DNA from: a virus
Reading direction: 5' to 3' (one strand)
Virus record (IMG/VR): IMGVR_UViG_3300032053_000003
Coordinates: 30,392 to 94,391 of that record
DNA: 64,000 nucleotides
Below are positions 34,299 to 60,561 of the stretch, one piece after another. Under the pieces are notes generated by a model. The model worked only from the letters and a program-made list of their open reading frames with translations, was not told the origin of the DNA and did no database searches. A program made the position numbers and the translations under genes. Every line of letters begins with the position of its first letter. Positions within the stretch are counted from its first letter, which is position 1.

Positions 34299-35759
34299 AT
34301 GTCTAAGTTTATTCCAGTATCTGGACCTTTAACCACTACAAGCCCTACTATCGATTCTCTTGATAATGTGAGGGTTAATGGTGTTCCAGGATATTACCCT
34401 GCTCTACTTGAAGGTGATGCTATCTTCGTTATTACTCCTGATGAAAGAACTTTCACCTATCGGGTAGAAATTAGATCCCCCAAGCCACCTGAAGATGTTC
34501 CTAATGTAATTTACCCTAAGTATTCCTCTGGTAATACTCCATATACTGGCAATATTTGTTTTATTCTTGCTGGTACTTCGGGTGGTACAGGCTCTTCTGG
34601 AACGAGTGGTTCATCTGGAATGGGTACATCAGGTTCTTCGGGCACCTCATTTTCTGGAATTACATCAGGGACTAGTGGTAGCTCAGGGGAGGGTGCAGAT
34701 GGAACTTCTGGTACCTCTGGCAATGGGTCTTCAGGGACTTCTGGGTCTTCAGGATCAAGGGGATCTAGTGGCACTAGTGGATCGTCTGGTATTGGCTCTT
34801 CTGGTACTTCTGGCTCTTCTGGTCTTTCGGGAATAGATGGTTATGATGGTACATCTGGCACCAGTGGCTCAAAAGGTGATGTAGGGTCCAGTGGAACCAG
34901 TGGGTCTTCAGGTTCAAGTGGTTCAAGGGGCACCTCAGGCACTAGTGGTTTAAGCGGTTCCTCAGGCACCAGTGGTACAGGATCTTCGGGGACTAGTGGT
35001 ACAGGATCTTCGGGGACATCAGGATTAAGTGGTTCTTCAGGGACTTCAAGTGTTGGCTCCTCTGGTACATCAGGTAATAGTGGGTCTTCTGGCACCAGTG
35101 GTTCAAGAGGCACTAGTGGGTCTTCAGGAACATCTGGATTAGGGTCTTCAGGAACCAGTGGCTTTGGTACTTCTGGTACGTCAGGCTTTGGAACTTCAGG
35201 TACATCAGGGTCTGGGACTTCAGGAACCTCTGGATCAGGTACCAGTGGAACCTCTGGAGTCAATGGTACTTCTGGGACAAGTAGTACTGGCTCTTCAGGA
35301 ACTAGTGGTTTAAGTGGGTCAAGTGGAACATCTGGTTTTGGTTCATCTGGTACATCAGGTCTCTCACCTCTTAATTATTATAATATTGACTCCACTACTG
35401 GTTATGAAACTCAGGTTTGCGCCACAGGTTCAGGGGTTACAATAAGTAAAGTAGGAAGTCTTTACACTTGGAGTATACCTTCAGGGGTACGTCTCATTTC
35501 TTGTAGCATAAGAGTTCCTGGAAGTTCACTCACTAGTGGTCAGATAATAATGGACTACTCTACTTTGGGGACTATGACCTGGACTAACAGGTTACTGGTA
35601 GGACCCATAAAGGCTTGGAGAGAGGACTCTGGTGCTCAGGTTACTATAACAGTCCAAGATCCAGATATTGAGCTGAATAGATGGTACCTTAGTGGAATGA
35701 GTGTCACTACTACATCATATGATTTGCTCATTTATTTCCATCAGAGAGTAACCTCATAA
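34299..35759 (+). CDS. Ser/Thr-rich Gly-X-Y (collagen-like) repeat fibre protein with C-terminal globular domain
   Basis: about 270 residues of GSS/GTS triplets (GTSGSSGTSGS...) then a non-repetitive C-terminal domain; AGGAGA SD. Confidence 0.7.
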   Translation: MSKFIPVSGPLTTTSPTIDSLDNVRVNGVPGYYPALLEGDAIFVITPDERTFTYRVEIRSPKPPEDVPNVIYPKYSSGNTPYTGNICFILAGTSGGTGSSGTSGSSGMGTSGSSGTSFSGITSGTSGSSGEGADGTSGTSGNGSSGTSGSSGSRGSSGTSGSSGIGSSGTSGSSGLSGIDGYDGTSGTSGSKGDVGSSGTSGSSGSSGSRGTSGTSGLSGSSGTSGTGSSGTSGTGSSGTSGLSGSSGTSSVGSSGTSGNSGSSGTSGSRGTSGSSGTSGLGSSGTSGFGTSGTSGFGTSGTSGSGTSGTSGSGTSGTSGVNGTSGTSSTGSSGTSGLSGSSGTSGFGSSGTSGLSPLNYYNIDSTTGYETQVCATGSGVTISKVGSLYTWSIPSGVRLISCSIRVPGSSLTSGQIIMDYSTLGTMTWTNRLLVGPIKAWREDSGAQVTITVQDPDIELNRWYLSGMSVTTTSYDLLIYFHQRVTS

Positions 35760-35771
35760 GGGGGATATGGC

Positions 35772-38700
35772 ATGTCATTAGCATTTGCTGCCAGGTTAGT
35801 AATAAATAATGTCGTAGACCTGGGGTCCAATATTTATGAAATAACAGGTAGGGTTTACGATTTTTCTATTTCTGGATATCTTGCTTCAGATGTTCAACTT
35901 GGGGATGTTATAATAGATGAGAATTCAGAGACTGGTGTAGTTAATAGGTGGAAGATTACTAATATAGTTTTAGCCAGTATTCGTAATCTTGTTTGTCATG
36001 TCGTATGGGACGATGAAGGTATAGAAGACCCAGCTGGTCCTCAGATTTGCCCAGCTGCTATTTGTAGTACATCTATTAATGTAAAGCTGGCTGAAGTACC
36101 TACTAGTACGTATTCCTTGCTTAGTGAGACCATCCTAACCAGAATTAATAATATCAATAATAGAGTCTTTATTGATCCTGCTATTACAGCAGGAACTAGT
36201 GGGTCCAGTGGTACATCTGGAGAGGGAGGAGGAACCAGTGGTTCTGGGTCGTCCTCTGGGACTAGTGGGATTTCTGGAGCCGATGGCTCCAGTGGTACTA
36301 GTGGTATTGGTCTTGATGGGTCTTCAGGTACGAGTGGAGCCGATGGGTCAAGTGGAACTAGTGGAGCCGATGGGTCAAGTGGAACCAGTGGAGCCGATGG
36401 AGTTGATGGGTCTTCAGGAACCAGTGGTATTGGTCTTGATGGTACATCAGGAACAAGTGGTGATTGGAGAAATGGGGTATATAACGAAATAATATCTGCT
36501 GATTCTGATGATTGTTATGTTACTCCAAATGATTCTGCAATTGATATAGGTCCTAGCCTAGTGGCTATGGGGAAGGGGGAGTTTAGTTTAGGTGCTGGTT
36601 TCAGATGGAATGGTTTGAATATACCGCAAGGTTCTCTTATTACAACTGCTTATGTGTCTTTAACCTCTGCTGATGATATTTCTAATGAAGACTGTATTAT
36701 TCAAATAAAAGGTGAAGCATCTGATAATGCAATTACTTTTTCTACCTATGAAGATTATGCTGCTCGATCTTTAACTGCAGCATCAGTAGCTTTTATTTTT
36801 CCTCCATCTACAGGAGATGTTGTTTATACTACTCCTGAATTAAAAACAATTATTCAAGAGATTGTGAATAGATCTAGTTGGCAAGTAGGGAATTCTATTG
36901 TTTTGTTTTTTGATGATAATGGTTCAACAGCATATGCACAACGAAATGTGTGTGATTTTGGGGCAAATCCTACAAAAGCTGCTAAACTTTATTTGCAATG
37001 GGACTCTTCTAATGGGCCTCAAGGATTACCTGGTGTTGATGGCACCTCAGGTTCAAGTGGGTCTTCAGGTACCAGTGGAGCCGATGGAGCTGATGGGTCA
37101 AGTGGAACCAGTGGGATCGATGGAGCTGATGGGTCTTCGGGAACCAGTGGTATTGGTCTTGATGGGTCTTCAGGAACCAGTGGAGTTGATGGAGCCGATG
37201 GGTCAAGTGGTACATCAGGTTTTGGGTCTTCAGGGACCAGTGGTATTGGTCTTGATGGGTCTTCAGGTACGAGTGGAGCCGATGGCTCCAGTGGGACCAG
37301 TGGTATTGGTCTTGATGGGTCTTCAGGTACGAGTGGAGCCGATGGGTCTTCAGGTACGAGTGGAGCCGATGGGTCAAGTGGAACTAGTGGAGCCGATGGG
37401 TCAAGTGGGACTTCAGGATCTTCAGGTACTTCAGGAGTAGATGCTCAGGCTACTAATTCTGTCTATGTTGATAGGGCTAGGGGTGACACATACACTCCTA
37501 CAGGAAGTGTAACCAAACCTTTTAAGACCCTCCAGGCTGCATTTGATTATATCGGACAGCCAACATTACCAGCTGACTTTAATGATGCTGCTAAATTCGG
37601 TTATAATGTTTATGTAGCTCCTGGGATATATACTGAGACACTAACTATTCCAGCTCGTCCTTCCATTAATGTATTTGTTGATGGTGTAAAAATAGTAGGT
37701 AATGTCACTTGGAATTTTGATGGCACTACGTTAACAGGTGCTTTAACACATCCAGAATTAGCTTTTATTGGTGATAATTTCCGTAATGCCTACAATACAG
37801 ATGGGCATCCTTTGACATGTACTATTGTAGGAAACCTTACAATAACACAGATTGCTGGTAGTTCAGGGAGTGGTGCTAGAGGACCCATTCTTATGCTTCG
37901 TGGTGCAGGTGTTGTTGGTAACATTACTTATAATACTAGTGGTACAGCAACAGGTTATAAATCTTTTACACAAATGCGTGATAGTATCTATACTGGTACT
38001 TTATCTACTGTGGGAGCAGGAGTTTCTAATTTACTGTACATTAGCAATTGTGATACCTCATCTTCCTATGCTGTAGGAGCCATTTCTGGAAATGTTTCTT
38101 TATATGTCCTTAGGAATGTACGGTTAGTTGGTACAGTAGTTTCTACTTCTAATAATGGTGGTAGGTGGTTTAATGTAACTTTTGGTGCTGTTGCTCATGA
38201 TTTTACAAATTGTTCTGGTACATTTAGTTGTGATGCCAATTCATATTCTAGTTTTTATGCTAATGTAACCAATAAGGGAGCAGGGGTATTCACGCTGATA
38301 GATGAAGCTAAAGGTGTGAAGAATGATTCAAATGTAACTGGTGTTTCTGTTAAAGATGCATTGAATAATCTGTTAGCTTTGGTAGGTACAAGTGGAACTT
38401 CAGGTACCTCTGGTTCCAGAGGTGTTGATGGATCAAGTGGGACTTCAGGGGCTGGGTTACCTGGAACTTCAGGTACCAGTGGAGCTGATGGGTCAAGTGG
38501 AACCAGTGGAGCCGATGGAGCTGATGGGTCTTCGGGAACCAGTGGGATCGATGGAGCTGATGGGTCTTCGGGAACCAGTGGTATTGGTCTTGATGGGTCT
38601 TCAGGAACCAGTGGAGTTGATGGAGCCGATGGAGCTGATGGGTCTTCGGGAACCAGTGGTATTGGTCTTGATGGGTCTTCAGGAACCAGTGGTATTGGTC

Positions 38701-40511
38701 TTGATGGGTCTTCAGGAACCAGTGGTATTGGTCTTGATGGGTCTTCAGGTACGAGTGGTATTGGTCTTGATGGGTCTTCAGGTACGAGTGGTATTGGTCT
38801 TGATGGGTCTTCAGGTACGAGTGGTATTGGTCTTGATGGGTCTTCAGGTACGAGTGGTATTGGTCTTGATGGGTCTTCAGGAACCAGTGGAGCTGATGGA
38901 GCCGATGGGTCTTCAGGAACCAGTGGAGCTGATGGGTCTTCAGGAACCAGTGGATTTGGAACTTCTGGTACGTCAGGAATTTCAGGCTCCAGTGGCACCT
39001 CAGCTACTTCTGGAGGAGGGGCAGGGGATGGTACTATTCTTCTTGGAGAACTTCCTTCAGGACAGATCTATGATGGTTTGATAACCCTTACGGAGACTGA
39101 TCAGGTGAATGAATCTATCAATTGGATTAATGAGATGCTTATTCTGATCTCCCCTGCAAAGCCTGAGATGCTCACAGGGGATGCTCTTGTTCTTACTGGT
39201 ACTGCTAAATATAGTGCTAAGGTGCCTTCTGGTCTTGTTGCAGCTTGGTATCTTGGTGGTGTGTCAGCTGGGGATACCATCACTGATTACGTTACAGACA
39301 ATACATTCCGTCTGACAACACCATCAACTTCAACAGAGTTTTATAACGGGATGTATACAGCTCCTGGTGGGACTTTGAATCTGTATGCAGGTGCCTCTAT
39401 TATCGATACCATCTCTACTGCAACAGCTGGCTCTTCTACGATGTTGACAGTATCTGATGTTGCAACTTACAACTCTATCTGGAGCAAAGCTAATGCTTAT
39501 GCAGATATCACTCAGACTGCTGAGGGCTATCTGTATTACAATTTTAATCACTCACTTGCTGGTGTAACAAACAATCTTGTAGTCAGGTATGATGATGTTC
39601 ATTCCACTCCTTCATTCTCATCAGCTCTTTCCATTGCTGAGAATACACCAGTCTGGAAGTATTTGTCAGGCATTCAGTATTATGGTCAGGGAACTACTCT
39701 AAATATTTCTTATACAGCTGCTGCTGGTATATTTACAAAATGTTATCATCCAACAGCAGTGGCAGTTATTTCCCAGAATGCTGTTGCCTTTGCAACCTTC
39801 AACTACAATCCTGCATCAATACCTGCTTATAACGATAACTGGATAGTGACTGGTTACACAGTGACATTGAGTGTGGCAAATAAGTCTTCTAATTCACCTA
39901 CTATTTCAGTAACCTTACAGAAGCCCACAGGTACCCAGGTTGTCTCTACTGCAAGCCTTGCTAAGAAACTTTGTACTTATGGTAACTATTCCACAACAAC
40001 TATAGAGTATTTCTTTGATGAGGCTTACAGGCTTGAGATAGGTACTGACACTGCTTGGACTTCATCAGCTACTTTGATAGATGACAATGCTCAGGTTCGT
40101 AATGGCTTTTTGCAGTGGCCTGATTCAGGGGATTACCCTACTGGGTTCTCAGGTGATCAGGAGTACCAGAGAAAGTTTACAAAAGTATCAGCATCCACTG
40201 GTACTTTAACCTTCTCAGGTATTACTTATTCTCAGATTTCTGCTTACGGTACTGGGGACCTCAATATTCTCCTTTATCTTGATACTGATGCCATATGGTT
40301 TGATCTTGGTCAGCTTGTTGGTTTTGGTGGGAATGGTTCTACACGAGCTTTGGCTATAGGTGCTCAGGGTTCAGGTTCAGGTGGACTTGTTAATTGGTCA
40401 ATAGGTACTTACAGTACAGGACCTTCTGGTTCAGGAAACTTCGGTAAATATAGGCTTGTCATTATCTTTAGGAACACCAACAGAACAATTACCCAGATAG
40501 TGTCTGCATAA
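35772..40511 (+). CDS. giant fibre/tailspike protein (1579 aa): collagen-like GXY blocks + right-handed beta-helix (pectate-lyase-fold-like) domain + C-terminal domains
   Basis: Multiple GSSGTSG[AI]DG blocks. The segment KPFKTLQAAFDYIGQPT...YNVYVAPGIYTETLTIPARPSINVFVDGVKIVGNV matches the N-terminal cap of pectin-lyase-fold depolymerases. Confidence 0.7.
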   Translation: MSLAFAARLVINNVVDLGSNIYEITGRVYDFSISGYLASDVQLGDVIIDENSETGVVNRWKITNIVLASIRNLVCHVVWDDEGIEDPAGPQICPAAICSTSINVKLAEVPTSTYSLLSETILTRINNINNRVFIDPAITAGTSGSSGTSGEGGGTSGSGSSSGTSGISGADGSSGTSGIGLDGSSGTSGADGSSGTSGADGSSGTSGADGVDGSSGTSGIGLDGTSGTSGDWRNGVYNEIISADSDDCYVTPNDSAIDIGPSLVAMGKGEFSLGAGFRWNGLNIPQGSLITTAYVSLTSADDISNEDCIIQIKGEASDNAITFSTYEDYAARSLTAASVAFIFPPSTGDVVYTTPELKTIIQEIVNRSSWQVGNSIVLFFDDNGSTAYAQRNVCDFGANPTKAAKLYLQWDSSNGPQGLPGVDGTSGSSGSSGTSGADGADGSSGTSGIDGADGSSGTSGIGLDGSSGTSGVDGADGSSGTSGFGSSGTSGIGLDGSSGTSGADGSSGTSGIGLDGSSGTSGADGSSGTSGADGSSGTSGADGSSGTSGSSGTSGVDAQATNSVYVDRARGDTYTPTGSVTKPFKTLQAAFDYIGQPTLPADFNDAAKFGYNVYVAPGIYTETLTIPARPSINVFVDGVKIVGNVTWNFDGTTLTGALTHPELAFIGDNFRNAYNTDGHPLTCTIVGNLTITQIAGSSGSGARGPILMLRGAGVVGNITYNTSGTATGYKSFTQMRDSIYTGTLSTVGAGVSNLLYISNCDTSSSYAVGAISGNVSLYVLRNVRLVGTVVSTSNNGGRWFNVTFGAVAHDFTNCSGTFSCDANSYSSFYANVTNKGAGVFTLIDEAKGVKNDSNVTGVSVKDALNNLLALVGTSGTSGTSGSRGVDGSSGTSGAGLPGTSGTSGADGSSGTSGADGADGSSGTSGIDGADGSSGTSGIGLDGSSGTSGVDGADGADGSSGTSGIGLDGSSGTSGIGLDGSSGTSGIGLDGSSGTSGIGLDGSSGTSGIGLDGSSGTSGIGLDGSSGTSGIGLDGSSGTSGADGADGSSGTSGADGSSGTSGFGTSGTSGISGSSGTSATSGGGAGDGTILLGELPSGQIYDGLITLTETDQVNESINWINEMLILISPAKPEMLTGDALVLTGTAKYSAKVPSGLVAAWYLGGVSAGDTITDYVTDNTFRLTTPSTSTEFYNGMYTAPGGTLNLYAGASIIDTISTATAGSSTMLTVSDVATYNSIWSKANAYADITQTAEGYLYYNFNHSLAGVTNNLVVRYDDVHSTPSFSSALSIAENTPVWKYLSGIQYYGQGTTLNISYTAAAGIFTKCYHPTAVAVISQNAVAFATFNYNPASIPAYNDNWIVTGYTVTLSVANKSSNSPTISVTLQKPTGTQVVSTASLAKKLCTYGNYSTTTIEYFFDEAYRLEIGTDTAWTSSATLIDDNAQVRNGFLQWPDSGDYPTGFSGDQEYQRKFTKVSASTGTLTFSGITYSQISAYGTGDLNILLYLDTDAIWFDLGQLVGFGGNGSTRALAIGAQGSGSGGLVNWSIGTYSTGPSGSGNFGKYRLVIIFRNTNRTITQIVSA
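38658..38888 (+). repeat. perfect 33-bp x 7 coding tandem repeat (GIGLDGSSGTS G units)
   Basis: GGTATTGGTCTTGATGGGTCTTCAGG(A/T)AC(C/G)AGT repeated 7 times head to tail. Confidence 0.9.
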
Positions 40512-40512
40512 T

Positions 40513-40845: not shown

Positions 40846-40886
40846 GGCTATATTTTCTTTTGGTATAGGATCAAAAGTTAAAAAAG

Positions 40887-41273: not shown

Positions 41274-41293
41274 CTAGATCCTGTGAGGCAATA

Positions 41294-41682: not shown

Positions 41683-41720
41683 TCTCTATAGAATTTACCC
41701 TCATATGGAGGATTTTTTAA

Positions 41721-44700
41721 ATGTGGACTAAGGAAGATCGAAGCTTCAAGACCCTGATTAATCGTAGGACAACTGATTCTACAGGTAAATATTGGTATAA
41801 TGAAGTTTCTGATTCTACGTTAAATGTCCATATCAGTGAGATATGGTCTGACACTATCAATGAATCTCCTGCCCAGGCAGTTATTGATGGTGTTGCAGAG
41901 TTAAGAACTCTTTTCACCTTAACTGAAGATACCACAGTACCTCTTCAGTACTGTTACTACGCATACTCTGGTGATAGGCTTAAAGACTGGATTTCTACAA
42001 AATATGGTAGTGGGTACACTGTTCACCTTTTTGACAATAACAATGTAGAGATAGGTCCTACAAATGCTTGTCAGTGGTTTTTTGACAATCAAACTGGAAT
42101 TTTAACCTTCAATGCTTCTGTTGCTGCTTTTGCCAAGCCTTTTAAGATTACTGGTTATAGGTACATAGGAGCCAAAGGTGTGGGCACCTCAGGTGCTGGC
42201 ACATCTGGTACATCGGGTATCAATGGGTCAAGTGGTACATCTGGTATAGGTTTTTCTGGCACCTCAGGTACATCTGGTGTGGGCACTTCTGGAACTTCAA
42301 GTATTGGTGTCGATGGCTCTTCAGGTACATCAGGTCTTAGTGGCTCAAGTGGTACTTCGGGACCAGGGGGGTCAAGTGGAACCTCAGGTTTCAGTGGTAC
42401 AGCAGGACAGGGATTCAGTTGGGAGAGTCAGTGGACAGCAAGTAAAGTTTACCAAGCTTATGATGTTGTAAAGACTGATTACAATTCTTACGTTTGTCAC
42501 TTGGGTCATACATCAACTTATAATGATCAACCTGGTGTAGGTCCTAATTGGGGTAATTACTGGGATACTTTTACTGAGGGTGGAATAGGATCTTCAGGTA
42601 CATCTGGATCAGGATCTTCAGGAACCAGTGGTTCTGGCTCCAGTGGCTCAAGTGGGTCTTCGGGCACAAGTGGCTCTTCAGGCTCTTCAGGAACCTCAGG
42701 TTCAAGTGGATCTTCAGGGACTGGTTTTTACTGGGATGACATGTGGCAGTATGATCATGCCTATGGAGTAAATGCTGTAGTTGAAAGTCTTAAAAGTTGC
42801 TACATTTGTAAGATATCTCATATCTCAACTTATGAAGATGAGCCAGGTGTTGATGCCTCTGGTCATGACTGGGAAACCTATTGGGATCTTATGGTTCCTG
42901 GTGGTGTTGGGTCTTCAGGTACGAGTGGGTCCAGTGGTTCAAGTGGTTCAAATGGTTCTTCAGGATCAAGTGGGACTTCAGGCTCTAGTGGTAAAGGTTT
43001 CATATGGGGAGGGGAATGGTCTACTTATCGTACTTTTTATACTTATAATGTAGTATCTCATTTGCATCATGGTACTTTTGTTTGTATTCAAGATCATATA
43101 TCTGATCCTATGTATCATGCTTATGAGCCTATGGGTAACGAAGATTGGCAGTCTTACTGGCAACCTTTTGCATTAAGTGGTACATCAGGTTCATCGGGTG
43201 CTAATGGGTCTTCAGGAACCTCAGGCTCAAGTGGAAAAGGATTCACATGGACAGGTGCTTGGATCATAAGTCATGTATATGATGAGACTCAAATGGTGGA
43301 GAATGGTTCAGACAGTTATGTCTGTACTGTATCCCATACTTCAGATGCCCTCAATGAACCTGGTAATGAACTTACAGGTAATGATTGGGAAGATTACTGG
43401 GATCGTTTCCTTCCTGGTGGGAATCCTGGATCTTCTGGCTCTAGTGGCTCAAGTGGTACAAGTGGCTCCAGTGGGTCATCAGGAACCTCAGGCTCCAGTG
43501 GTACAGGTGGATTTAAGTGGGCAGGTGGTTGGTATGAATATCCAAGTCATCTTTATCAGGTTCATGATGTAGTATCTCATAATCCGTGGGGAACTTTCGT
43601 ATGTATTCAGCAGCATCTTTCTGAATATAATCATGAGCCAGAGGTAGATGGTGACTGGCAGTCATACTGGCAGTATTTTGCTCCTGCTGGCACATCGGGT
43701 TCATCAGGTGTTAATGGGTCTTCAGGTACAAGTGGAGTTTCACCTGCATTTACTAGTATTCTCAGTCAGGATCTTGATGCCAATGAATGGAGTATTGTCC
43801 ATCTTAATTCTGTATCATGGAATTCAGAGTACAACTATGGTGATGCTGGAACTTCAGCTACTATTAATTGGACAGAAGGTCAGATCCAGAAGGTAATTCT
43901 TACTAAGCCTAGTATCATAAATTTTAGTAATCCTGTAGGTGTTGGGTATTATCTGATCAGGTTGGTTACTGGTGGCTATAATGCAGTATTTCCAAGTGTG
44001 ATTTGGGCAGGTGGTTTAACTCCTACTTTTGGTGCTGAGGCTGTAAACCTAGTTTACATTTATTTTAATGGTGTTACCTATTATGGTCATGTTTGGGGTC
44101 AGGGAGGCACTTCAGGCACGAGTGGGTCTTGTACGTTTACCAGTACTCTTGAGACTGATCTTGATGCAAATAATCACAATATTATTCATCTTAACTCAGT
44201 TTGTTATAATGCAGAGTATAATTATGGGGACTCAGGCTCGATAGCTACTATAGATTGGACAGAAGGTCAGTTACAGAAGATAGATCTCACTGATGATTGT
44301 GAGATTTCTCTCTCTAATCCTAAGGGTGTTGGATATTATCTGATCAGGTTGGTTACAGGACTTGGTTCAGGTTATGGTTACAATGCAACATTCCCTGATG
44401 TAGTTTGGACGGGTCCTACTCCTGTTTTTGGTGATGATCTTGAGAATGTAATCTATTTTTACTTCAACGGTATTAATTATTATGGTCATGTTTGGGGTAC
44501 AGGTGGGACTGGTGGAACCAGTGGTTCTGGCACCAGTGGGACTTCAGGTGTATCTGGGTCTTCAGGGACTAGTGGGGAGGCTGGAACCTCTGGAGTAGCT
44601 GGCACCAGTGGGACTTCTGGTTCCAATGGTTCTTCAGGGACTTCAGGCTTGATTTCAACTTATCAGTACTCAAATACATATTCTGCTTCTACATCCTGGG

Positions 44701-46413: not shown

Positions 46414-46434
46414 GTAGTCAACATTTGAAGTACA

Positions 46435-51535: not shown

Positions 51536-51552
51536 ACAGGAGGTAAGACCAA

Positions 51553-52382
51553 TGAGGCATTATGGTATTGATGATCAATATTTACTGCAAGCGGAGACAT
51601 GTGACCCTCTTCCTTCTTGGGAAGCAAAGTACACCAGGAGCTTCATTTATGACCTTGATACTAAGACAATGTACTATGCTACGGATACAAAGTGGGTAGC
51701 TGTCAGTGCTAACGTACTTGCTGGCTATATTCATCCTCAGGCATCAGCATCAGCAACTTGGAGTGTTGTTCATGATCTGGGTGTCCAGGATGTAAGTGTC
51801 ACCGTCTATGGTGAGGACAACAAGGTCATGATGCCTATCGACATTGAGACAATCAGTGTCAATGCTCTCACAATTACCTTTGGTGAGGCTGTGGCAGGTA
51901 AGGCTGTCATCGTTACAGGTAACCCTGGCACAGTGACCTACAGTCAGCAGAAGGTTACACTTGCCAAAGGGACCTCTCTTGCTGATGGTGATTGGAAGGG
52001 TCTGGCTATTACAGGTGCAGTAGGTGGTTCAATAACCAAGGGAGACCTCTGCTACTGCAAACTTAATTTGGGTGCTTGGAAGTACTATCGTTATGATGCT
52101 GATGCTACTGATAAGCTAATTCTCCCCTCAGCCTTAGCTCTTGATTCTTACATATCAGGGGATGGTAGCTTCTTAATCGATGGTGAGATGAGGAATGATG
52201 CTTGGACAGGGCTTGCTGGGACTGCTGATGCATCAACTACAGTCTATGCAAGTACGGCTACAGGTAACCTTACCATGACTGCCCCAGCTGTCTCAGGTAA
52301 CGAAGTTGTTGTTGTAGGTGTACTCATTGCTGCTTACACCCTTCAGCTAAAGATCGGGTATGCTTGGCTTGAGGTGAAGTAA
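51553..52382 (+). CDS. short fibre protein with conserved N-terminal anchor domain (MRHYGIDDQYLLQAETCDPLPSWEAKYTRSFIY...)
   Basis: GGAGG SD before ATG 51553; N-terminus paralogous to 44956 and 46503 genes. ORF-track start 51441 would overlap the upstream gene. Confidence 0.6.
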
Positions 52383-52440: not shown

Positions 52441-52546
52441 CTAAACTTAGAGGTTGAAAAACTTGATATCATTGCTTTAGGGTATTAACATTATGGGGCA
52501 AGAGTGTAGAGAAGAGTGTGATATTCCTATAGATAAGGGGGGTAGT

Positions 52547-54211
52547 ATGCCTGTAATCAGCAAATATGGATCAGATGAGCCTCAGAAGATCCAGGAGTTC
52601 CTAGAAGTATCTAAGCCTTTTGATGTGTCAGAAGTAATTCAAGGGACCTCTCTTTTAAAGTTGGAGGATATAGATTTTCTTAATGAGCATGCTAGTCAAT
52701 TTGAGCAAAGATTTAATGCTAGATCTATATTTAGGTCAAAATTTGAAATGGAAGCTTCTGTTCTTAATGATGATGTTCATCCTACTCCTGATAGCAAATA
52801 TTTCCAGGCAATTGGGGAGCAGAATGTCCACCTTACAGAGTTGATATCTCTTATTTATAATGTAAAAAAAGGTGGTAAGGATATCGAACTGAAAGGGATA
52901 GATCTTGATGAGGTCAACCTTCAGCTCAAACGTCTGCATAGAGAGAATGTTGAGCTGTGTGAGAGGATATCAAAACCTGATGCCGTAGCTTCCAGAGAGG
53001 ATGCTGACAGGTTAGATGAATTGCCTATTCTTATTAATAGGAAAGAAAAAGAGATCGAAAAACTTGAGTTGGAACTTGATGAGCTGAAGTTCAATATCAA
53101 GCAGTCCAATAAGGTAGCTCAGGAGCGTATCCGTGAGGTTAAACAGTGGGAAGCTATTATTGCCAAGCTTGTTCCTCAACTTGAGTTTGGGATCGAAGAC
53201 TTTGAGCTGCATCACCCAAAACGATATGTTCAGAGATATGGTCGTAGGGCTATGCATCTCGATATTCTTAATCCTGAAGATAAGGAGAATGTAGTCAGTC
53301 ATTTCTTATCTTTTGCAGGTCATACAGATAACAAAGAGGAAGCCAAGAAGTTTCTTAAGGATATGGTGACTGTAGGTGGCATGCCAATGAATCATGGATT
53401 GGTTAAGGCTCTTCAGGCATCTATAGGACAACCCAACTTGCAACAGTTGTCAGCTCCTGATGTTAAGAGGCTAGATCAGGATTACCCCAGTAAGGAAATA
53501 GCTAACCTGGATGATCCTGTTGTGAAGAGCTTCTTTATCAGGAAGACTCTCAAGATCTTGGTGTGTTCTCCTCATCGTCTTCCTACAGATAAGATTATTA
53601 TGAATATGTGGGCACTCCAGACACCTGCTGCTTTTGATTGTCAGCTGTGGGAACCTCATGGGATGTCAGTTGCTGAGGCTCGTACCTCATCTATTAAGAA
53701 AGCTATTGCAGAAGGGTACCAGTTCATTCAGTGGATTGATGATGATATGATTCTACCCAGGAATGCCTTAGTGCAGCTTATCAGTCACGTTGCTGACATC
53801 GTAGGTGGTTTCTACTATCGTAAGTATGAGCCTATTGAGTCCTGTGGTATGCATGAGTATGTTATCAACAATGAGATGGTGCCAAGACCTATTAAGGATT
53901 TTAAGATAGGTGAGGTTATTCATCATACTTTGGTTCTTCCCTCTGGTTGTACTCTTCTTAATCTTGATATCTTTAAGAATGAGAAGATGGAGGAGCCTTG
54001 GTATAGGACTGTTACAATAACAGGTGCACCAGCAATTACAGAGGACACCTATTTTTGCCAAAAGGCACGGTTGGCTGGGTATGATGTGCTTACCGATACA
54101 GGTGTTCAATGTATCCATGTTGATCTGGCAAGTAATAGGATCTTCGGGCATCCTGAAGTAGTTGATATGAGTAAGAATATTATTCTTAATCCGTATAATT
54201 ATTGCTTATAA
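52547..54211 (+). CDS. coiled-coil + GT-A fold glycosyltransferase (GT2-like); alt start 52493
   Basis: GGGGGG SD before ATG 52547; C-terminal half has FIQWIDDDMILP (DxD) and GGFYYRKYE typical of GT-A; central ELELDELKFNIKQ coiled coil. Confidence 0.55.
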   Translation: MPVISKYGSDEPQKIQEFLEVSKPFDVSEVIQGTSLLKLEDIDFLNEHASQFEQRFNARSIFRSKFEMEASVLNDDVHPTPDSKYFQAIGEQNVHLTELISLIYNVKKGGKDIELKGIDLDEVNLQLKRLHRENVELCERISKPDAVASREDADRLDELPILINRKEKEIEKLELELDELKFNIKQSNKVAQERIREVKQWEAIIAKLVPQLEFGIEDFELHHPKRYVQRYGRRAMHLDILNPEDKENVVSHFLSFAGHTDNKEEAKKFLKDMVTVGGMPMNHGLVKALQASIGQPNLQQLSAPDVKRLDQDYPSKEIANLDDPVVKSFFIRKTLKILVCSPHRLPTDKIIMNMWALQTPAAFDCQLWEPHGMSVAEARTSSIKKAIAEGYQFIQWIDDDMILPRNALVQLISHVADIVGGFYYRKYEPIESCGMHEYVINNEMVPRPIKDFKIGEVIHHTLVLPSGCTLLNLDIFKNEKMEEPWYRTVTITGAPAITEDTYFCQKARLAGYDVLTDTGVQCIHVDLASNRIFGHPEVVDMSKNIILNPYNYCL

Positions 54212-54252
54212 GCAGTAGAGTAGTATCACATAAACACTACCAAATGTGAGGG

Positions 54253-57200
54253 GTGTGCATGCCTGATAAATTTGAAAATATATTGGCTGTTTGTAGCTTT
54301 CTGGGCACTTCTGGTTATAACTATCATGCTCGTGGGTTTTTTACAGCACTCAATAAGCTTCTCCCTGTAGCTATCAAGAATTGGTCCTATGATGATAATC
54401 CTTATTATCTGACCAATGAGCAAAAGGTTATGATGGCTGCTGCCTCTGGGAAGAGCTTTTCCTTCGGTGAGTGCATTACTGTATGTCTTCACGAATCCAA
54501 TCATGAAGATTGGTATAAACATGCTTACAAGTCACCTAAGATAGCCTTTAATGTATGGGAATCTACCAGACAGACTGAGAGGTTTTTTCAGAAGCTTCTT
54601 GAGTTTGACCAGATCTGGGTCCCCAGTGAATGGCAGAAGAAGTATACGGTTGAACAGGGTGCCCCTGCTGATAAGGTATTTGTTATACCTGAAGGAATAG
54701 ATACAGATCGTTTCAAGGTTACAGAGCCTACTATTAACTACCATTTTGCAGATAAGGATAAGTTTACTTTTACTATTGCAGGTAGGTGGGAATATCGAAA
54801 AGCTACAACAGAGATGATCCGGACATTCAATGAGACTTTTAGAGATGTAGATGATGTTGAGTTACTTATCCTGGTAGATAATCCTTTTGATAGACAGAAA
54901 ATGTCTACAGAGGACAAACTATTACAGAATGGCTTAGGTAATAAAAAGATCAAAATCCTTCATAAACTCTCACAAGAGGATTATGACCAGCTGATATGTG
55001 AAACAAATTGTTTCTTATCTTGTAGTAGGGCTGAGGGCTGGAACCTTCCATTATGTTTTCCAGTAGGTACAGAGATTATTACTCCTAGTGGTTTTAAGCT
55101 TATAGAGACTATTAAACAGGGTGATGATGTATTTTCTCATAAGGGATTATCTAGAAAAGTTAAAGGTGTAATGACCAGGGAGTACAGAGGTGATTTAATT
55201 AATGTTGATATTTATAATAATATAAATACTCTCTCTGCTACTCCTGAACATCCTGTGAGGGTTATTAAACGAAATAGGATGTCTACTATGTATGGTGGTT
55301 CCTTATTGGAGTATATTCAAAAGAGAAAGTTGGAACCTGAGTGGATTCCAATAAAAGAGATAGAAAAAGGGGATCTTCTTGTTCAGGCTATTCCTTGTAC
55401 TTTATTAAAGAATAATATTACTATAGATTTATTGAATTATCTACCAAATATGCAGTTTGATTCTGAATATATTTGGAGCAAATATAGTAATAATCCAAAG
55501 GAAAAGGGGAGTAATGTTAAAAAAGTTAATAGATTTGTTAAGTTAAAGGATCTAACCTTTTTGATAGGTTGGTATCTTGCTGAAGGTAATTCTTATAAAA
55601 CTAGGTTGGACTTTACAGTTAACTCTATTACAGAACAAGGAGTTGCAGCTAGGATTAAGGATGATTTTAATAGGTTGTTTGGTGTTGACTCTGTTTTTAA
55701 GGAAGACTCTGATAAAGATGCATTGCACATAAGGATCAGCTCCTCAATATTGGCTACTTTTTTTAAGCTTTATTGTGGGGGCAAGCAAAGTTTCAGGTTT
55801 ATCCCTAATGAAGTTTTATATGGTAATATTGACATCCTACAAGAAGTCATATCAAATTTATTCTTAGGTGATGGGTGTCATCAGCAGGAGAGGGATAGGA
55901 ATCTACTTACTACATGTTCCGAAGTGCTTGCTAATCAGGTTGTAATAGCATTGCATAGATTAGGTTACAAGGCAGGAACTCAGAAAGTAAAAAGAAATAG
56001 AAAATGTAAGCATTATGTAGTTAGTTTTGCTTATGATTCTTTTAATGGTACACATAGTAACAAACAGTATGTTTTTGAGAAAGAGGTATGGCATTTTGTT
56101 AAAAAAGTAACAAAGACTTCTTATGAGGGCATTGTATACAATTTTGAAGTAGAGAAAGATAATTCGTATCTTACTCATACAGCTTCTGTGCATAATTGTG
56201 AGTTCATGGCTTGTGGAGTCCCTGCTATATGCTCAAACTGGTCAGGTCATCTGGAATTTGCTAAGGATTATGCCAGTCTTGTTAATACAGATTATCTAAA
56301 AGCTGCATGGTCAGAGTTTGGTGACTTTCCTGGAGAGTATGCTGAGCCTGATTTTAAGCATCTTGGTCAGTTGATGTTGGCACACTATGCTGATCATTCA
56401 AACTTTACTACTAGAGCAGTAGAAGGGGCTGAGTACCTAAAGGGCTTTACTTGGGAGAATGCAGCTAAAATAGCTCTGAGTACCATGAAGCCCTTGATGA
56501 TAAGGACTACACCTATAAACATTGTAGAGCCTAAAGGTGAGAAACCTCCTGTTAAGGTTGAGGTTACTGAGCCTATTGTAATCAAAAAGTCTGAGATAAA
56601 GGCTGAGGTCAGTAAGAAGGTGAAAAGTAAGGACATCATCGTTATTGACTGCTTTCCTAATACTGAAAATAAGTTAAAAAAGCTTGTTGACACTATTTAT
56701 TTTGTAAAGAAGTTTGAAAAACCAATAGCACTGGTATCTCATCTTCCTATCCCAGAAAGTGTACAGGTCCTTGTAGATTACTACATCTTTGATGTTGACA
56801 ATACCCTGCCTGATTACAGGTTGCCTATATACTATACCTTCAGTGATTTAAAGTTGTTAGGCAGACTTGATCGTCCTTATCATAGTCTCCCTATTGTGAA
56901 GTCCCTTCAGAATATCTGTAAGATGTTCTCTAATTTTGAGAGGATACACTTCATTGAATACGATATAAACATTGATTTTGAGAAGCACCTTTCAAATGTA
57001 GCAACCCATAAGGACAAGGATCTGGTTAGCTACTTCTATGAGGGCACTGGTATCTATACCAATATCATGACCTTTAAGCCTTCTCTGATGCTTGAGGTTC
57101 TCACAACCCAGACTCTTAATTGGGAAGACTACAAGAAGATGGCTTCTCCTGTGATACTGGAGAGAGATCTCATCTTTGAAAATTGGATGTTCAAGATCCT

Positions 57201-58713
57201 TACCAGTGCTGGAAAGACAGATAACATGGTCGTTCTTAAGTCTGATACTATCAATATGAAGTTAGATGAGTTCAAGGAAATGCCTGTAGTCAACTTTGTG
57301 GTTTGTGAGACAGAGGATGACAAGAATGTCCTGTTTGTAATCCATAGGAATATCGATCCTAAAGAGTTCATATTTGACCCAGCAGGGTTAAAGCTTATCA
57401 GTAATGGTGCTGATCCCTACTCATATGTCATTTTTGACAGAGATATAACAAATGTGACAGTTCACGGTATGGGTAAGACTTTTGATGTCGATGTTGTTAA
57501 TGAATACAAGGGTGAATTCCTCTTCTTTGATGGGTGTCCTGCTGCTGATATCAAATGTAAGAAGTCTGAGTTCTGGAGGGGAATAAGCTCCAAGCACAAT
57601 ATTCAATACAGAAATTTTTTCATTGATGGTGCTTTTATGGAGCTTCTGGGTCCTACTACTGATGATAAGTACAAAGTGACTTTTACTGATCGTCACTCTG
57701 GTCAGATAGTTCATTCAACAGAGATTGGGATCAACTGTTGGACAAAGACCAATAGGAAGTACTACACAGATTGGAACGTAAAGGTCACTTCTAATGATGA
57801 AGAGCTTTACAACCAGGACATATCCTACTTTCAGAGAAGGGTTTTTGTTGTTCTTGACTCTAAGGCTATGGGAGATACCCTAGCTTGGTTCCCCATGGTG
57901 GAAGAATTCAGAAAGAAGCATAATGCTCATGTAATATGTTCCTCCTTCTGGAATAAGTTCTTCAAGTCCAAGTACCCTGAGATAGATTTCATAGAGCCAG
58001 GGCAGTCGGTTCCAGATATCTTTGCTCAGTTCAATGTGGGTTGTTATGATAATGATCTCAATAGGAATAGGTTCAATTGGAGGATCACCCCTCTTCAGAA
58101 GGTGGCTGCTGATATTCTGGGGATTACAAGATATGTGGAGGTTCTTCCTAATGTAGCCTATAAAGTTCTGGATAGACCAATAAAAGAGAAGTATGTGGCT
58201 ATCTCAGAACACTCGACTTTTATGTGTAAATACTGGTTGAATTCTGGAGGGTGGTCTACAGTAATAAACTACCTCAATGATCTGGGTTATGTTGTGGCTG
58301 CTATATCCAAAGAAACTACCCAGCTTCCTGGTATAGTAGACCTCACAGGAAAGCCTATTGAGGAGACCATCAGTAACATCCATCACTCTTCCATGTTCAT
58401 TGGCATGTCCTCTGGTCCTTCATGGCTCTCTTGGGCTCTCAAGAAGCCCCTGGTACTTATCTCAGGATATTCTAAAGAGTGGGCTGAGATGGATTTCAAG
58501 AATCCTCTTGTGAGCAGGGTTATTAACAAGGATGTCTGTCATGGATGCTTTAATGATCCTTCTCTTCCTCTTGAACGTGGTAGTTGGAGATGGTGTCCTC
58601 GTGGAAGGGATTTTGAGTGCAGTAAGATGATCTCCCCTGAGATGGTGATGGAGGGTATCAATAAGTTCTTTGGTATGAATAAGAATAGTGCAGGGTACGG
58701 AAGGTTATTATGA
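54253..58713 (+). CDS. multi-domain glycosyltransferase (1486 aa): N-terminal GT4-like domain interrupted by an intein, central domain of unknown function, C-terminal GT9 (heptosyltransferase-like) domain
   Basis: The two extein halves, AEGWNLPL and CEFMACGVPAICS, join to give the GT4 motif (EGFGLPVLEAMACGVPVIAS-like). C-terminus VVLDSKAMGDTLAWFPMVEEFRKKHNAHVICSS ... GMSSGPSWLSWALKKPLVLISG matches GT9 N- and C-terminal blocks. Confidence 0.7.
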   Translation: MCMPDKFENILAVCSFLGTSGYNYHARGFFTALNKLLPVAIKNWSYDDNPYYLTNEQKVMMAAASGKSFSFGECITVCLHESNHEDWYKHAYKSPKIAFNVWESTRQTERFFQKLLEFDQIWVPSEWQKKYTVEQGAPADKVFVIPEGIDTDRFKVTEPTINYHFADKDKFTFTIAGRWEYRKATTEMIRTFNETFRDVDDVELLILVDNPFDRQKMSTEDKLLQNGLGNKKIKILHKLSQEDYDQLICETNCFLSCSRAEGWNLPLCFPVGTEIITPSGFKLIETIKQGDDVFSHKGLSRKVKGVMTREYRGDLINVDIYNNINTLSATPEHPVRVIKRNRMSTMYGGSLLEYIQKRKLEPEWIPIKEIEKGDLLVQAIPCTLLKNNITIDLLNYLPNMQFDSEYIWSKYSNNPKEKGSNVKKVNRFVKLKDLTFLIGWYLAEGNSYKTRLDFTVNSITEQGVAARIKDDFNRLFGVDSVFKEDSDKDALHIRISSSILATFFKLYCGGKQSFRFIPNEVLYGNIDILQEVISNLFLGDGCHQQERDRNLLTTCSEVLANQVVIALHRLGYKAGTQKVKRNRKCKHYVVSFAYDSFNGTHSNKQYVFEKEVWHFVKKVTKTSYEGIVYNFEVEKDNSYLTHTASVHNCEFMACGVPAICSNWSGHLEFAKDYASLVNTDYLKAAWSEFGDFPGEYAEPDFKHLGQLMLAHYADHSNFTTRAVEGAEYLKGFTWENAAKIALSTMKPLMIRTTPINIVEPKGEKPPVKVEVTEPIVIKKSEIKAEVSKKVKSKDIIVIDCFPNTENKLKKLVDTIYFVKKFEKPIALVSHLPIPESVQVLVDYYIFDVDNTLPDYRLPIYYTFSDLKLLGRLDRPYHSLPIVKSLQNICKMFSNFERIHFIEYDINIDFEKHLSNVATHKDKDLVSYFYEGTGIYTNIMTFKPSLMLEVLTTQTLNWEDYKKMASPVILERDLIFENWMFKILTSAGKTDNMVVLKSDTINMKLDEFKEMPVVNFVVCETEDDKNVLFVIHRNIDPKEFIFDPAGLKLISNGADPYSYVIFDRDITNVTVHGMGKTFDVDVVNEYKGEFLFFDGCPAADIKCKKSEFWRGISSKHNIQYRNFFIDGAFMELLGPTTDDKYKVTFTDRHSGQIVHSTEIGINCWTKTNRKYYTDWNVKVTSNDEELYNQDISYFQRRVFVVLDSKAMGDTLAWFPMVEEFRKKHNAHVICSSFWNKFFKSKYPEIDFIEPGQSVPDIFAQFNVGCYDNDLNRNRFNWRITPLQKVAADILGITRYVEVLPNVAYKVLDRPIKEKYVAISEHSTFMCKYWLNSGGWSTVINYLNDLGYVVAAISKETTQLPGIVDLTGKPIEETISNIHHSSMFIGMSSGPSWLSWALKKPLVLISGYSKEWAEMDFKNPLVSRVINKDVCHGCFNDPSLPLERGSWRWCPRGRDFECSKMISPEMVMEGINKFFGMNKNSAGYGRLL
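55054..56196 (+). other. intein (381 aa) with LAGLIDADG homing-endonuclease domain, inserted in the GT4 catalytic motif
   Basis: Begins at Cys1 (CFPVGTEIITPSGFKLIETIKQGDDVF, Hint block A). LAGLIDADG blocks LIGWYLAEGNS and LFLGDGC. Ends ...ASVHN followed by +1 Cys at 56197. Confidence 0.75.
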
Positions 58714-58907: not shown

Positions 58908-59070
58908 TACTCCTCATACAAGTTGGAAGAACCAGCCTTTGAGTTACTGGATTCCTATTCGGGGTATTGCTCGTGCCTTGGCCTATATCCATACAGTAGT
59001 TGTGAAGGCAGTGCTTAAGGTTGGTAGGAAATGGACTAAATATGATGTCACCAGTGAGAGAGTAGACTAG
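58891..59070 (+). CDS. hypothetical 59-aa protein (MAEFYNTPHTSWKNQPLSYWIPIRGIARALAYIH...)
   Basis: GGAGG SD; fills gap; below track cutoff. Confidence 0.35.
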   Translation: MAEFYNTPHTSWKNQPLSYWIPIRGIARALAYIHTVVVKAVLKVGRKWTKYDVTSERVD

Positions 59071-59793: not shown

Positions 59794-59802
59794 GGAGGTT
59801 CC

Positions 59803-60561
59803 ATGTCTTTCCTCAGCTTTTATTGCAGAAATAAGCTTTATGGATGTCTCCTTGGTATGGATGCCTTCCCTAAGCCTCAAACCTTTATAGGGTTTGGAAG
59901 AACTGCACCTGTTGATCCTCCTGGTACTGTTGAAGAGCCTGTTAATGACGATTACAATAGAATCTTTTATACACACTGGAAGATAGCAGGTAGGGACGTA
60001 TCAAATGATACTACCATAACTGCCTATACCAGAACTGACTGGGGGACCCTCACACACTTCCTTATCTGGGATGCTCTTGAAGGTGGAAACCTCTTGGCAT
60101 ATGGTGTTCTTCCTGATCCTGTTGTTGCTCCAAGTGGACGAGTTCTCTCATTCTCAAAGAATAAGCTGCAACTTCAGATCATACCAGGTACAATTACTAA
60201 CTACCTTACTAACAGATTCCTTGAGCATCTCTTTGGGATTGTAACCTTGGCATCCATTCATAGCTACATAGGTCTTTCCTATACCAATCCTGGAGATGCA
60301 GGGACTCCTGTACATCCTATTAGTGCAGATTATCATGATGTGGCTTTTCTGGGATGGGAGATCTCTGATCTTAGTGAGCTTGTAAACATTGCAGCAATCA
60401 ATTTTATTCCTAGAACTGACTGGGGTGCTCTTCCTTATGTGTATGTAAGGGATGCTGAAGGTAGAACCCTCTTTTACTCTGCTTTTGAGAGTCCTATAGT
60501 AGCCGATCAGTATAGTCCTGTGGTTATTGAACCAAACCAGCTTACTATAGTTTTTGATTAA
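59803..60561 (+). CDS. hypothetical protein with internal duplication (TDWGTLTHFLIWDALEGGNLLAYG / TDWGALPYVYVRDAEGRTLFYS)
   Basis: 252-aa ORF; GGAGG SD. Confidence 0.5.
   Translation: MSFLSFYCRNKLYGCLLGMDAFPKPQTFIGFGRTAPVDPPGTVEEPVNDDYNRIFYTHWKIAGRDVSNDTTITAYTRTDWGTLTHFLIWDALEGGNLLAYGVLPDPVVAPSGRVLSFSKNKLQLQIIPGTITNYLTNRFLEHLFGIVTLASIHSYIGLSYTNPGDAGTPVHPISADYHDVAFLGWEISDLSELVNIAAINFIPRTDWGALPYVYVRDAEGRTLFYSAFESPIVADQYSPVVIEPNQLTIVFD

Follow-up and report, generated by a model that had tools for sequence, protein, structure and literature searches.

We describe a stretch of viral DNA of 64,000 nucleotides, here called the window (IMG/VR record IMGVR_UViG_3300032053_000003, positions 30,392 to 94,391). 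Within its positions 34,299 to 60,561, five genes for collagen-like phage fibres are followed by genes for a coiled-coil GT-A glycosyltransferase (ccGT-A), for a multi-domain glycosyltransferase (GT) of 1486 amino acids (aa) and for an FkbM-family methyltransferase. The C-terminal domain of the multi-domain protein belongs to the BAHT (bacterial autotransporter heptosyltransferase) family of protein O-glycosyltransferases, whose members include TibC and Aah. We propose that this module is a phage-encoded system for the O-glycosylation and methylation of collagen-like fibre repeats, a purely genomic reading to which we assign a probability of about 0.6. It is built on domain identities, conserved catalytic residues, the anatomy of an intein, the position of the enzymes among structural genes and a conserved gene linkage. 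The core idea, i.e., phage enzymes which glycosylate Ser/Thr-rich Gly-X-Y fibres, had been voiced in a sequence-only reading of the window and is now supported by membership in the TibC/Aah family and by the linkage to repeat proteins. All open reading frames (ORFs) named in that reading were recovered in place on the + strand. The module comprises:

34299..35759, + strand: fibre protein 1 (486 aa); eight Gly-Thr/Ser-Ser runs with 189 residues, no Pro; Pfam Collagen, E 2.3e-12
35772..40511, + strand: fibre protein 2 (1579 aa); 372 residues in 15 runs; Pfam Collagen, E 2.7e-30
41721..44870, + strand: fibre protein 3 (1049 aa); 264 residues in Gly-X-Y runs
44956..46413, + strand: fibre protein 4 (485 aa); 360 residues in one run; Pfam Collagen, E 7.3e-54
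46503..50879, + strand: fibre protein 5 (1458 aa); 204 residues in runs, four GTS/GSS blocks
51549..52382, + strand: short fibre-like protein without triplet block; PHROG structural-protein matches; a 276-aa gene in the source contigs
52493..54211, + strand: ccGT-A (572 aa); GT-A fold with an acidic DxD-type motif
54253..55053, + strand: N-extein of the GT4 (GT-B) domain, residues 1-267 of the 1486-aa protein; ends ...AEGWNLPL, first half of the EX7E motif
55054..56196, + strand: predicted intein (381 aa, residues 268-648) with LAGLIDADG homing-endonuclease domain; splicing-block motifs
56197..56502, + strand: C-extein of the GT4 domain, residues 649 to about 750; starts C-EFMACGVP, second half of EX7E
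56620..57552, + strand: central domain, about residues 790-1100; GT-A/nucleotide-diphospho-sugar-transferase-like fold, then a β-sandwich
57619..58665, + strand: TibC/Aah-type (BAHT) protein O-glycosyltransferase domain, residues 1123-1471; TIGR04414
59071..59793, + strand: FkbM-family S-adenosylmethionine (SAM) methyltransferase (240 aa); PF05050, 43.1 bits (cut-off 22.7), and TIGR01444, 72.1 bits (cut-off 37.7)

The TibC/Aah-type domain

The C-terminal domain of the 1486-aa protein matches TIGR04414 with 246.7 bits (curated equivalog cut-off 200) over model positions 16-373 of 374. The homologue from Microcystis phage Mel-JY01 reaches 317 bits. A fit to the lipopolysaccharide (LPS) heptosyltransferases is denied because those models score only about 17-18 bits against this domain. 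In the sequence-only reading the protein was a fusion of GT4-like and GT9-like transferases. Both signals are genuine; the GT9-like part is specifically of the TibC/Aah type, the one family related to GT9 in which the characterised enzymes O-glycosylate protein serines, and an intein of 381 aa had been overlooked. The domain is 31% identical to TibC and, like the TibC crystal structure, combines an N-terminal β-barrel with an atypical GT-B catalytic core.

In TibC, Asp110 is the catalytic base, and Thr226, Lys230, Arg286 and Trp305 contact the ligand. Arg286 contacts adenine N1 and is the basis of ADP-sugar specificity, Pro300 selects between D,D- and L,D-heptose, Cys339, 342, 358 and 370 form an iron finger, and a β-hairpin thumb is required for the dodecamer (PMC4358343). 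The equivalents of Asp110, Thr226, Lys230 and Trp305 are identical in the window protein. Conservation was evaluated in this protein together with 127 relatives (n = 128): Asp is present in all 128, Lys and Trp in 126 each, and Thr or Ser at the position of Thr226 in 125. The motif CHGC...WCPR...FEC matches the iron finger of TibC column for column, with Cys at the four positions in 122-124 of the 128 sequences; an iron finger is accordingly predicted. With Asp, Lys, Trp and the four Cys in place almost without exception and Thr or Ser at position 226, inverting O-glycosyl transfer to a protein hydroxyl is a well supported prediction.

The domain does not follow TibC in every respect. Pro300 is replaced by Ser or Gly in the window protein and its relatives, Arg286 is lost and the thumb is shortened. 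No autotransporter was found among the translated module ORFs or the family matches obtained; the neighbours are collagen-like fibres. Since Arg286, the thumb and the autotransporter partner fail, and profile, fold and catalytic residues pass, we file the domain, by its sequence, as a divergent subgroup of the family with a different predicted acceptor class.

Collagen-like fibres as predicted acceptors

Gly-X-Y runs in the five fibre proteins were counted from at least 4 triplets. Position X is almost only Thr or Ser, Ser dominates at position Y, where Asp or Gly also occur, and charged residues are few. Stable triple helices are as a rule aided by Pro or hydroxyproline, by charge pairs or by glycosylated Thr. 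The periodicity is uninterrupted in runs of up to 120 triplets. Pfam Collagen is above threshold in all five fibres (E 2e-11 to 7e-54), and all five match PHROG tail-fibre families via their repeats. The long Gly-Ser-Ser/Gly-Thr-Ser blocks reported in the sequence-only reading are thus present in every fibre, in the extents listed above and far more than chance would produce, and the hundreds of hydroxyl side chains it invoked amount to 712 Ser plus Thr within the runs. Its statement that the blocks contain no Pro holds for fibres 1, 4 and 5; fibres 2 and 3 have two Pro each. Five fibre genes are indeed present, and they are not strictly consecutive: two small ORFs between 40513 and 41273 interrupt the series. 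The label 'mucin-type', which was attached to the repeats, is an analogy only.

The architectures of the fibres differ. Fibre 1 is a candidate acceptor. Fibre 2 has globular domains set apart by three groups of G-S-S/G-T-S/G-A-D/G-I-D blocks. In fibre 3, five Trp/Tyr-rich modules of about 60 aa alternate with GSS/GTS blocks ahead of a C-terminal knob of about 65 aa. Fibre 4 is the most extreme, with 120 unbroken GSS/GTS/GSD triplets (X = 81 Ser/39 Thr, Y = 108 Ser/12 Asp, Pro 0) flanked by an N-terminal anchor of 50 aa and a C-terminal knob. Fibre 5 carries large globular domains. The 50-aa anchor is common to fibres 4 and 5 and to ORF 51549..52382 (58% identity between fibre 5 and the latter), and the knob to fibres 3 and 4 and the same ORF (53% identity between fibres 3 and 4). 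Because anchor and knob are shared among fibres 3-5 and ORF 51549..52382, the set looks interchangeable, as judged from the sequences.

As a side observation, the modules of fibre 3 (residues about 230-660) have a consensus of roughly GF.W...W....Y...D.V....Y.C...H.S...PG....W..YW. They resemble small carbohydrate-binding modules and have no Pfam match. The window also has long antisense ORFs over the fibre genes, e.g., 38255..38998 (- strand).

Linkage of BAHT genes with Ser/Thr-rich repeat proteins

Viral relatives were sought in IMG/VR with an alignment of five phage BAHT domains as query. The alignment was needed, as a locus search with a single BAHT sequence returned nothing. BAHT relatives are present on at least 540 viral contigs (540 of 600 pattern-matched IMG/VR stretches). 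The following statistics are drawn from the best 80 viral BAHT loci, which are stretches with limited flanks. A Gly-X-Y run of at least 8 triplets occurs in 42 of these 80 loci, almost all with Thr/Ser at X and Ser/Asn at Y. From the BAHT sequence to the nearest run the median distance is 2 kb, and in 11 of 39 loci the run lies within about 420 bp. Of the 41 loci that reach 15 kb or more, 27 have Ser/Thr-rich Gly-X-Y runs, compared with 0 of 18 control loci (Fisher p about 1e-6). The controls (288 kb) were retrieved with RtcB or ccGT-A and include one huge-phage locus retrieved with BAHT; two of the 18 have ordinary collagen runs of the Pro/Gln type. When viral and genome BAHT sequences are collapsed together at 70% identity, the link is kept in 44 of 77 clusters. 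In the best 80 loci, too, the companions of the module recur: GT4 is directly upstream of BAHT in 29, the central domain is present in 24, and FkbM adjoins BAHT in 17.

Individual loci illustrate this. Among 50,697 phage records searched, Mel-JY01 (PP395634) is the sole isolate with this layout; an ORF of 805 aa for a GSS/GTS fibre (635..3052, + strand) precedes, by 1.7 kb, a fusion of GT4, methyltransferase and BAHT. In the 735-kb phage LR756501, a GSS/GTS protein of 699 aa is encoded next to an ORF that contains a BAHT. A contig of 147 kb (L013/L021) has the whole arrangement, with the intein absent.

In the 805-aa ORF of Mel-JY01, a long GSS/GTS block separates an N-terminal from a C-terminal domain. 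GenBank lists two coding sequences in this region, 1..651 and 739..2298, both on the - strand, with PEVP/PLVP repeats in their translations. What is annotated there is probably the antisense of the collagen-like fibre gene.

The linkage extends to bacteria. In bacterial genomes, runs of the G-[ST]-[SN] type are found beside BAHT in 29 of 47 loci. Two-gene cassettes are present in the chromosome of Methylobacter sp. (CP197401; L119, 8935..11119) and in a 2.7-Mb contig of a Methylococcales metagenome-assembled genome (L146, 9971..12038). They consist of a stand-alone BAHT and a signal-peptide protein of 281 or 293 aa, which is mostly (GT[SN])n or (GTS)39 plus a short tail. The flanks are housekeeping genes: Hsp70, glycolate oxidase, thyA, ppa and phoA. 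The block is common to all contexts examined in detail, and this is the strongest argument that the repeat block is the acceptor.

The GT4 domain, its intein and the central domain

The N-terminal part of the 1486-aa protein is a GT4 domain recognised by Pfam Glycos_transf_1 and Glyco_transf_4; PF00534 reaches 27.9 bits (cut-off 26.4) despite an interruption. The N-extein matches PHROG 2170, a glycosyltransferase family, with E 2e-22 and is 38% identical to the Mel-JY01 homologue. The interrupting sequence has C268 as Cys1, a TPEH block B, the two LAGLIDADG motifs GWYLAEG and LFLGDG, a terminal H647-N648 and C649 as Cys+1. Pfam matches to Intein_splicing, Hint_2 and LAGLIDADG_3 are weak and sub-threshold. 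Its G+C content is 32.5% vs 39-42% in the exteins. By its motifs the 381-aa insert is a class 1 intein with a LAGLIDADG endonuclease, and splicing is predicted. The insertion point lies inside the EX7E catalytic motif of GT4, which reads E-GWNLPLC-E with the intein removed. Mel-JY01 and all eight of eight close fusion homologues (1057-1105 aa) are uninterrupted at this site, EGW[NG]LP[LG]-x-E-x-[ML]ACG. We know of no other intein in a glycosyltransferase or in its active-site motif, and no example of an intein in a glycosyltransferase surfaced in a literature search.

The central domain has no Pfam family, and the same is true for ten stand-alone homologues. In an AlphaFold2 model it is α/β. 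Such a model had been suggested as a check in the sequence-only reading; it yielded a GT-A-like fold, and an hhalign comparison with the ccGT-A family lent no further weight (probability 0.8%, not significant; HFIEYD is aligned to the DDD motif). A64R of chlorovirus PBCV-1 is among the matches attributed to this domain. A profile of the domain against PDB sequences gave noise only, and a word-indexed search with the domain alone as query retrieved one homologue only. Overall, the domain has 228 homologues, of which many stand alone as proteins of about 320 aa. From the model, the central domain is GT-A-like and possibly a further transferase.

Two relatives of the fusion (P0127 and P0128, 1120 and 1146 aa) have a different domain in place of the central one, which by eye resembles a GT-B glycosyltransferase of the GT4 type. 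Several viral loci encode the central domain on its own. As far as sequences tell, the module is assembled from exchangeable transferase cassettes.

Accessory enzymes, neighbouring genes and the remainder of the window

In the ccGT-A, a helical hairpin spans about residues 99-229, and the GT-A domain about residues 350-572. Its AlphaFold2 model (predicted local distance difference test score, 88) consists of a long helical hairpin and then an α/β domain. D417 and D418 are invariant among the homologues, of which there are 117, many on phage contigs of 90-312 kb. Structural neighbours include Mimivirus R699 and the collagen glycosyltransferases LH3 and ColGalT1. In a 312-kb phage (L004, 6367..9707 and 13356..21015; JGI 3300032046) a ccGT-A homologue is located beside G-[YIV]-S fibres. 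These are two paralogous fibres with Gly-Tyr/Ile/Val-Ser triplets, in which Ser is fixed at Y and X is hydrophobic; the enzyme cluster of this phage contains a GT2-GT2-methyltransferase fusion, a GT1, a GT2 and a GT9 with a Cys cluster. The FkbM-family methyltransferase, already recognised in the sequence-only reading, is borne out by both PF05050 and TIGR01444.

Further features of the window are:

50912..51535, + strand: permuted papain-like (Peptidase_C92/YiiX-like) protein; PF05708, 26.1 bits, just below the cut-off of 27
59803..60561, + strand: Gp80-like fibre protein (252 aa); PF23140 (podophage GP4 fibre I gp80), E 2.4e-25
3138..4073, - strand: Mom-family protein, from the Pfam scan
10300..11391, - strand: RtcB RNA ligase; PHROG, E 2e-113
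14926..16230, - strand: transposase-like ORF; PHROG 4285
17466..17540, - strand: a single tRNA-Glu(UUC)
23924..24490, + strand: ORF with a methyltransferase motif-like string only

The papain-like protein sits between fibres and transferases; a homologue with 66% identity has the same position in the 147-kb phage contig. The Gp80-like gene has the same neighbourhood in a 247-kb relative (L107). Because this Gp80-type fibre gene follows and the fibres precede, the enzymes are embedded in a structural block. The module genes are co-directional and tightly spaced. The sequence-only reading had spoken of one operon, which we do not uphold: a promoter/terminator scan of the module was at or below shuffled expectation and hence uninformative.

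From about 31.6 kb to the end of the window all long ORFs are on the + strand. The part upstream of about 31.6 kb is mostly on the - strand and has replication- and takeover-type functions; among the early-region products are a polymerase-like protein, a sigma factor and RtcB. When 51 ORFs outside the module, mostly in the left half of the window, were scanned with Pfam, Mom and sigma-70 region 4 were identified and, in a single ORF each, NADAR, PARP catalytic, DUF4326 and SAM lyase. ORF 23924..24490 had been put forward as a second SAM methyltransferase. Its pattern 'ETGTGVAHG ... LDAHF' recalls class I methyltransferases; there is no match in Pfam, NCBIfam, PHROGs or PDB sequences, and with the 'ETGTG' string as its only feature the assignment is rejected.

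A megablast search of the module and the first 25 kb against the 50,697 phage records was empty; therefore, the phage has no close sequenced relative there. A protein identical to the ccGT-A is encoded by metagenomic contigs 237 kb and 231 kb long, and on this ground the module belongs to a large uncultured phage of about 237 kb.

Proposed pathway and alternative explanations

The following scheme, with its acceptor, reaction order, donor sugars and biological effect, is our inference. Fibres with long, nearly Pro-free (Gly-Ser/Thr-Ser)n blocks would be synthesised in the host cytoplasm. The precursor of the multi-domain enzyme would splice out its intein, which would restore the EX7E motif and the GT4 active site. 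The BAHT domain would then add, still in the cytoplasm, the first sugar to Ser/Thr hydroxyls of the triplet blocks. GT4, the GT-A-like central domain and the separate ccGT-A might extend the glycan, and the FkbM methyltransferase might O-methylate a sugar. As a result, the fibres would bear a dense brush of methylated glycans. This brush could stabilise or stiffen a proline-free triple helix, shield against proteases or antibodies, or tune adsorption. There is a precedent in animals: glycosylated (galactosyl-) Thr stabilises the hydroxyproline-poor collagen of the tube-worm Riftia.

Several observations weigh against this proposal. The characterised BAHT substrates are β-helical autotransporter repeats, not triple helices. 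The position of the adenine-contacting Arg286 is occupied by Thr in the window protein, and Arg is found in only 21 of the 128 sequences. The thumb segment (TibC residues 256-275) has 11 residues vs 20, and the Phe265/Val266 tip is absent. Because of the shortened thumb a TibC-style dodecamer is doubtful; without Arg286, and with Ser or Gly in place of Pro300, the identity of the donor becomes uncertain and ADP-heptose is not well supported in this role. Judged from both changes, quaternary structure and donor may differ from those of TibC. Neither the 51 ORFs scanned outside the module nor the surroundings of the Mel-JY01 gene contain nucleotide-sugar or heptose-synthesis genes. The function of the central domain is read from fold similarity, and hhalign gave no significant alignment to the GT-A family. 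The control set of 18 loci is small and unmatched for structural-gene context. Finally, when 120 viral loci were chosen by a GTS/GSS-coding DNA pattern, BAHT was found within the retrieved stretch in only seven, and in five of the 53 which have at least 10 kb.

Two of these points call for comment. We do not claim heptose as the donor sugar, since no heptose-pathway genes were found in the ORFs scanned; a 'cytidylyltransferase-like' gene of Mel-JY01 has only weak matches to NMN-adenylyltransferase. Seven of 120 is a lower bound because the flanks are short, and even this exceeds by far the background rate of BAHT in 2.9 million contigs. Most GTS/GSS fibre loci are without BAHT nearby; thus, BAHT glycosylation is no general requirement, or other enzymes substitute. 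An obligate link between GSS/GTS fibres and BAHT is rejected at this frequency.

The alternative which survives best is that virion proteins are glycosylated outside the Gly-X-Y blocks, i.e., in globular or β-helical parts of the fibres, in the capsid or in the tail tube, with the triplets as collagen-like spacers. We regard it as unlikely. Characterised BAHTs recognise a folded β-helix and modify serines in strand-loop-strand repeats. Fibre 2 and others possess large non-collagen domains rich in Ser/Thr, and in most GTS/GSS fibre loci no BAHT is nearby. As summarised in PMC12619734, documented glycosylation of phage virions concerns the C-termini of capsid and tail-tube proteins. However, the G-[ST]-[SN] block is the common element of phage loci and bacterial cassettes, whereas the non-repeat domains examined vary widely. 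Further, the bacterial partners are small (281 and 293 aa) and leave little besides the repeat and a short tail.

Could the enzymes act on host envelope glycans such as LPS core, capsule or exopolysaccharide, e.g., to block superinfection, their adjacency to fibre genes being incidental? LPS and exopolysaccharide pathways typically use GT4, GT2-like and GT9-like enzymes, weak matches to EpsE, BshA and RfaQ models exist, and recent papers on large phages read their glycosyltransferases as modifiers of the cell surface, the cell wall or DNA. Yet the envelope-pathway models reach 17-21 bits vs cut-offs of 170-467, whereas the protein-O-heptosyltransferase model passes its own cut-off. The module enzymes have no match to a membrane-anchor or lipid-carrier-related family, they are embedded in a late structural block, and they show a specific linkage to Ser/Thr-rich repeat proteins that recurs in bacterial cassettes. 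We consider an action on envelope glycans improbable.

That the enzymes glycosylate phage DNA, i.e., hypermodified bases, to evade restriction is hardly credible: DNA glycosylation is a frequent role of phage glycosyltransferases and the window does encode a Mom-family protein, but this gene is 50 kb distant on the opposite strand, no search run revealed similarity to DNA glucosyltransferases, the family assigned is that of protein O-glycosyltransferases, and the genes lie within the structural block. No profile placed the module enzymes in DNA-modification or capsule pathways, an outcome the sequence-only reading had named as decisive against itself.

Beyond glycosylation of the fibre repeats in this phage, we tentatively suggest, as a possibility and not as a probability, that proline-free (Gly-Ser/Thr-Ser/Asn)n repeats are the substrates of TibC-like transferases in a widespread, unrecognised enzyme-substrate pair, found on hundreds of viral contigs and, in the form of two-gene cassettes, in bacterial chromosomes. 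In it, dense O-glycosylation, methylated in this phage, would stabilise or rigidify a helix free of Pro and hydroxyproline. If this holds, it would be a microbial counterpart of Riftia collagen, and fibre glycosylation would be common in large environmental phages and no oddity of actinophages.

To our knowledge, glycosylation of phage virion proteins has been demonstrated only for mycobacteriophages. If the fibre repeats are glycosylated as proposed, virion glycosylation reaches the receptor-binding structures of large environmental phages, the TibC/Aah family gains a second kind of acceptor, and the puzzling Pro-free collagen-like repeats common in phage fibres find a possible explanation. 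Fibre glycans could influence host range, adsorption, particle stability and antibody recognition. The system is testable: the cultured phage Mel-JY01 shares the arrangement, and the bacterial two-gene cassettes offer a minimal system for reconstitution.

Comparison with known systems

The pairs TibC/TibA and Aah/AIDA-I are related to the module by the enzyme. The BAHT domain is a family member by profile, by fold and by the catalytic Asp and the Lys, Trp and Thr contacts. TibC acts in the cytoplasm on serines of autotransporter repeats (PMC4358343). Here, too, a predicted cytoplasmic enzyme is encoded beside a highly repetitive, Ser-rich protein which is predicted to be hyper-glycosylated on hydroxyls. 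The partner, however, is a collagen-like Gly-X-Y fibre (in bacteria a small secreted (GTS)n protein) and not a β-helical autotransporter. The phage domain is fused to GT4 and GT-A-like domains, is found in a viral context and has a shortened thumb. Unlike TibC, it has lost Arg286 and carries Ser or Gly in place of Pro300. Aah also has Ser at the latter position and accepts both heptose epimers.

The closest functional analogue, and we use it as an analogy, is SgtA/BclA3 of Clostridioides difficile. SgtA O-glycosylates Thr/Ser in the collagen-like repeats of BclA3, whose gene adjoins that of the transferase (PMC7157674). In both systems a glycosyltransferase gene directly adjoins the gene for a collagen-like protein, with O-linked sugars, predicted in the phage, within Gly-X-Y repeats. 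On the native protein the initiating sugar is extended and capped, which resembles the pathway proposed for the phage. The differences are considerable: the SgtA reaction was recapitulated with UDP-GlcNAc and the enzyme is described as an O-GlcNAc transferase, not as a BAHT, and BclA3 has Gly-Pro-Thr repeats on the spore surface, as opposed to the nearly Pro-free G-S/T-S repeats on phage fibres. BclA of Bacillus anthracis is likewise an O-glycosylated collagen-like protein of the exosporium.

Giant viruses provide a second comparison. A064R of chlorovirus PBCV-1 comprises two GT domains and a methyltransferase, and glycosylation of the Mimivirus fibrils involves collagen-like proteins. Enzymes of this kind, which combine several GT domains with a methyltransferase, modify surface proteins or fibrils of the virion, as is proposed here. 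The giant-virus systems differ in that the hosts are eukaryotic, the enzyme families are others, the acceptors are the major capsid protein or collagen hydroxylysine, and there is no BAHT.

Mycobacteriophages offer a further comparison. As the work of Freeman et al. (2023) is summarised, phage glycosyltransferases encoded near structural genes modify virion proteins, and shielding has been proposed; the acceptors differ, being the C-termini of capsid and tail-tube subunits, and this summary mentions neither a BAHT nor a collagen-like acceptor, a methyltransferase or a multi-domain fusion (PMC12619734).

A search of full-text literature, which covered few subscription journals, returned no paper that joins collagen-like repeats with TibC-type transferases or describes the module in phages, and no mention of Mel-JY01. 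Recent work on large phages discusses their glycosyltransferases in general terms. The earlier statement that the system has no described counterpart therefore stands for phages and for TibC-type enzymes in the literature searched, and is softened by C. difficile SgtA/BclA3. Judged by its sequences, then, the module is a known family of protein O-glycosyltransferases in a new architecture, with a new predicted class of acceptor, in viruses.

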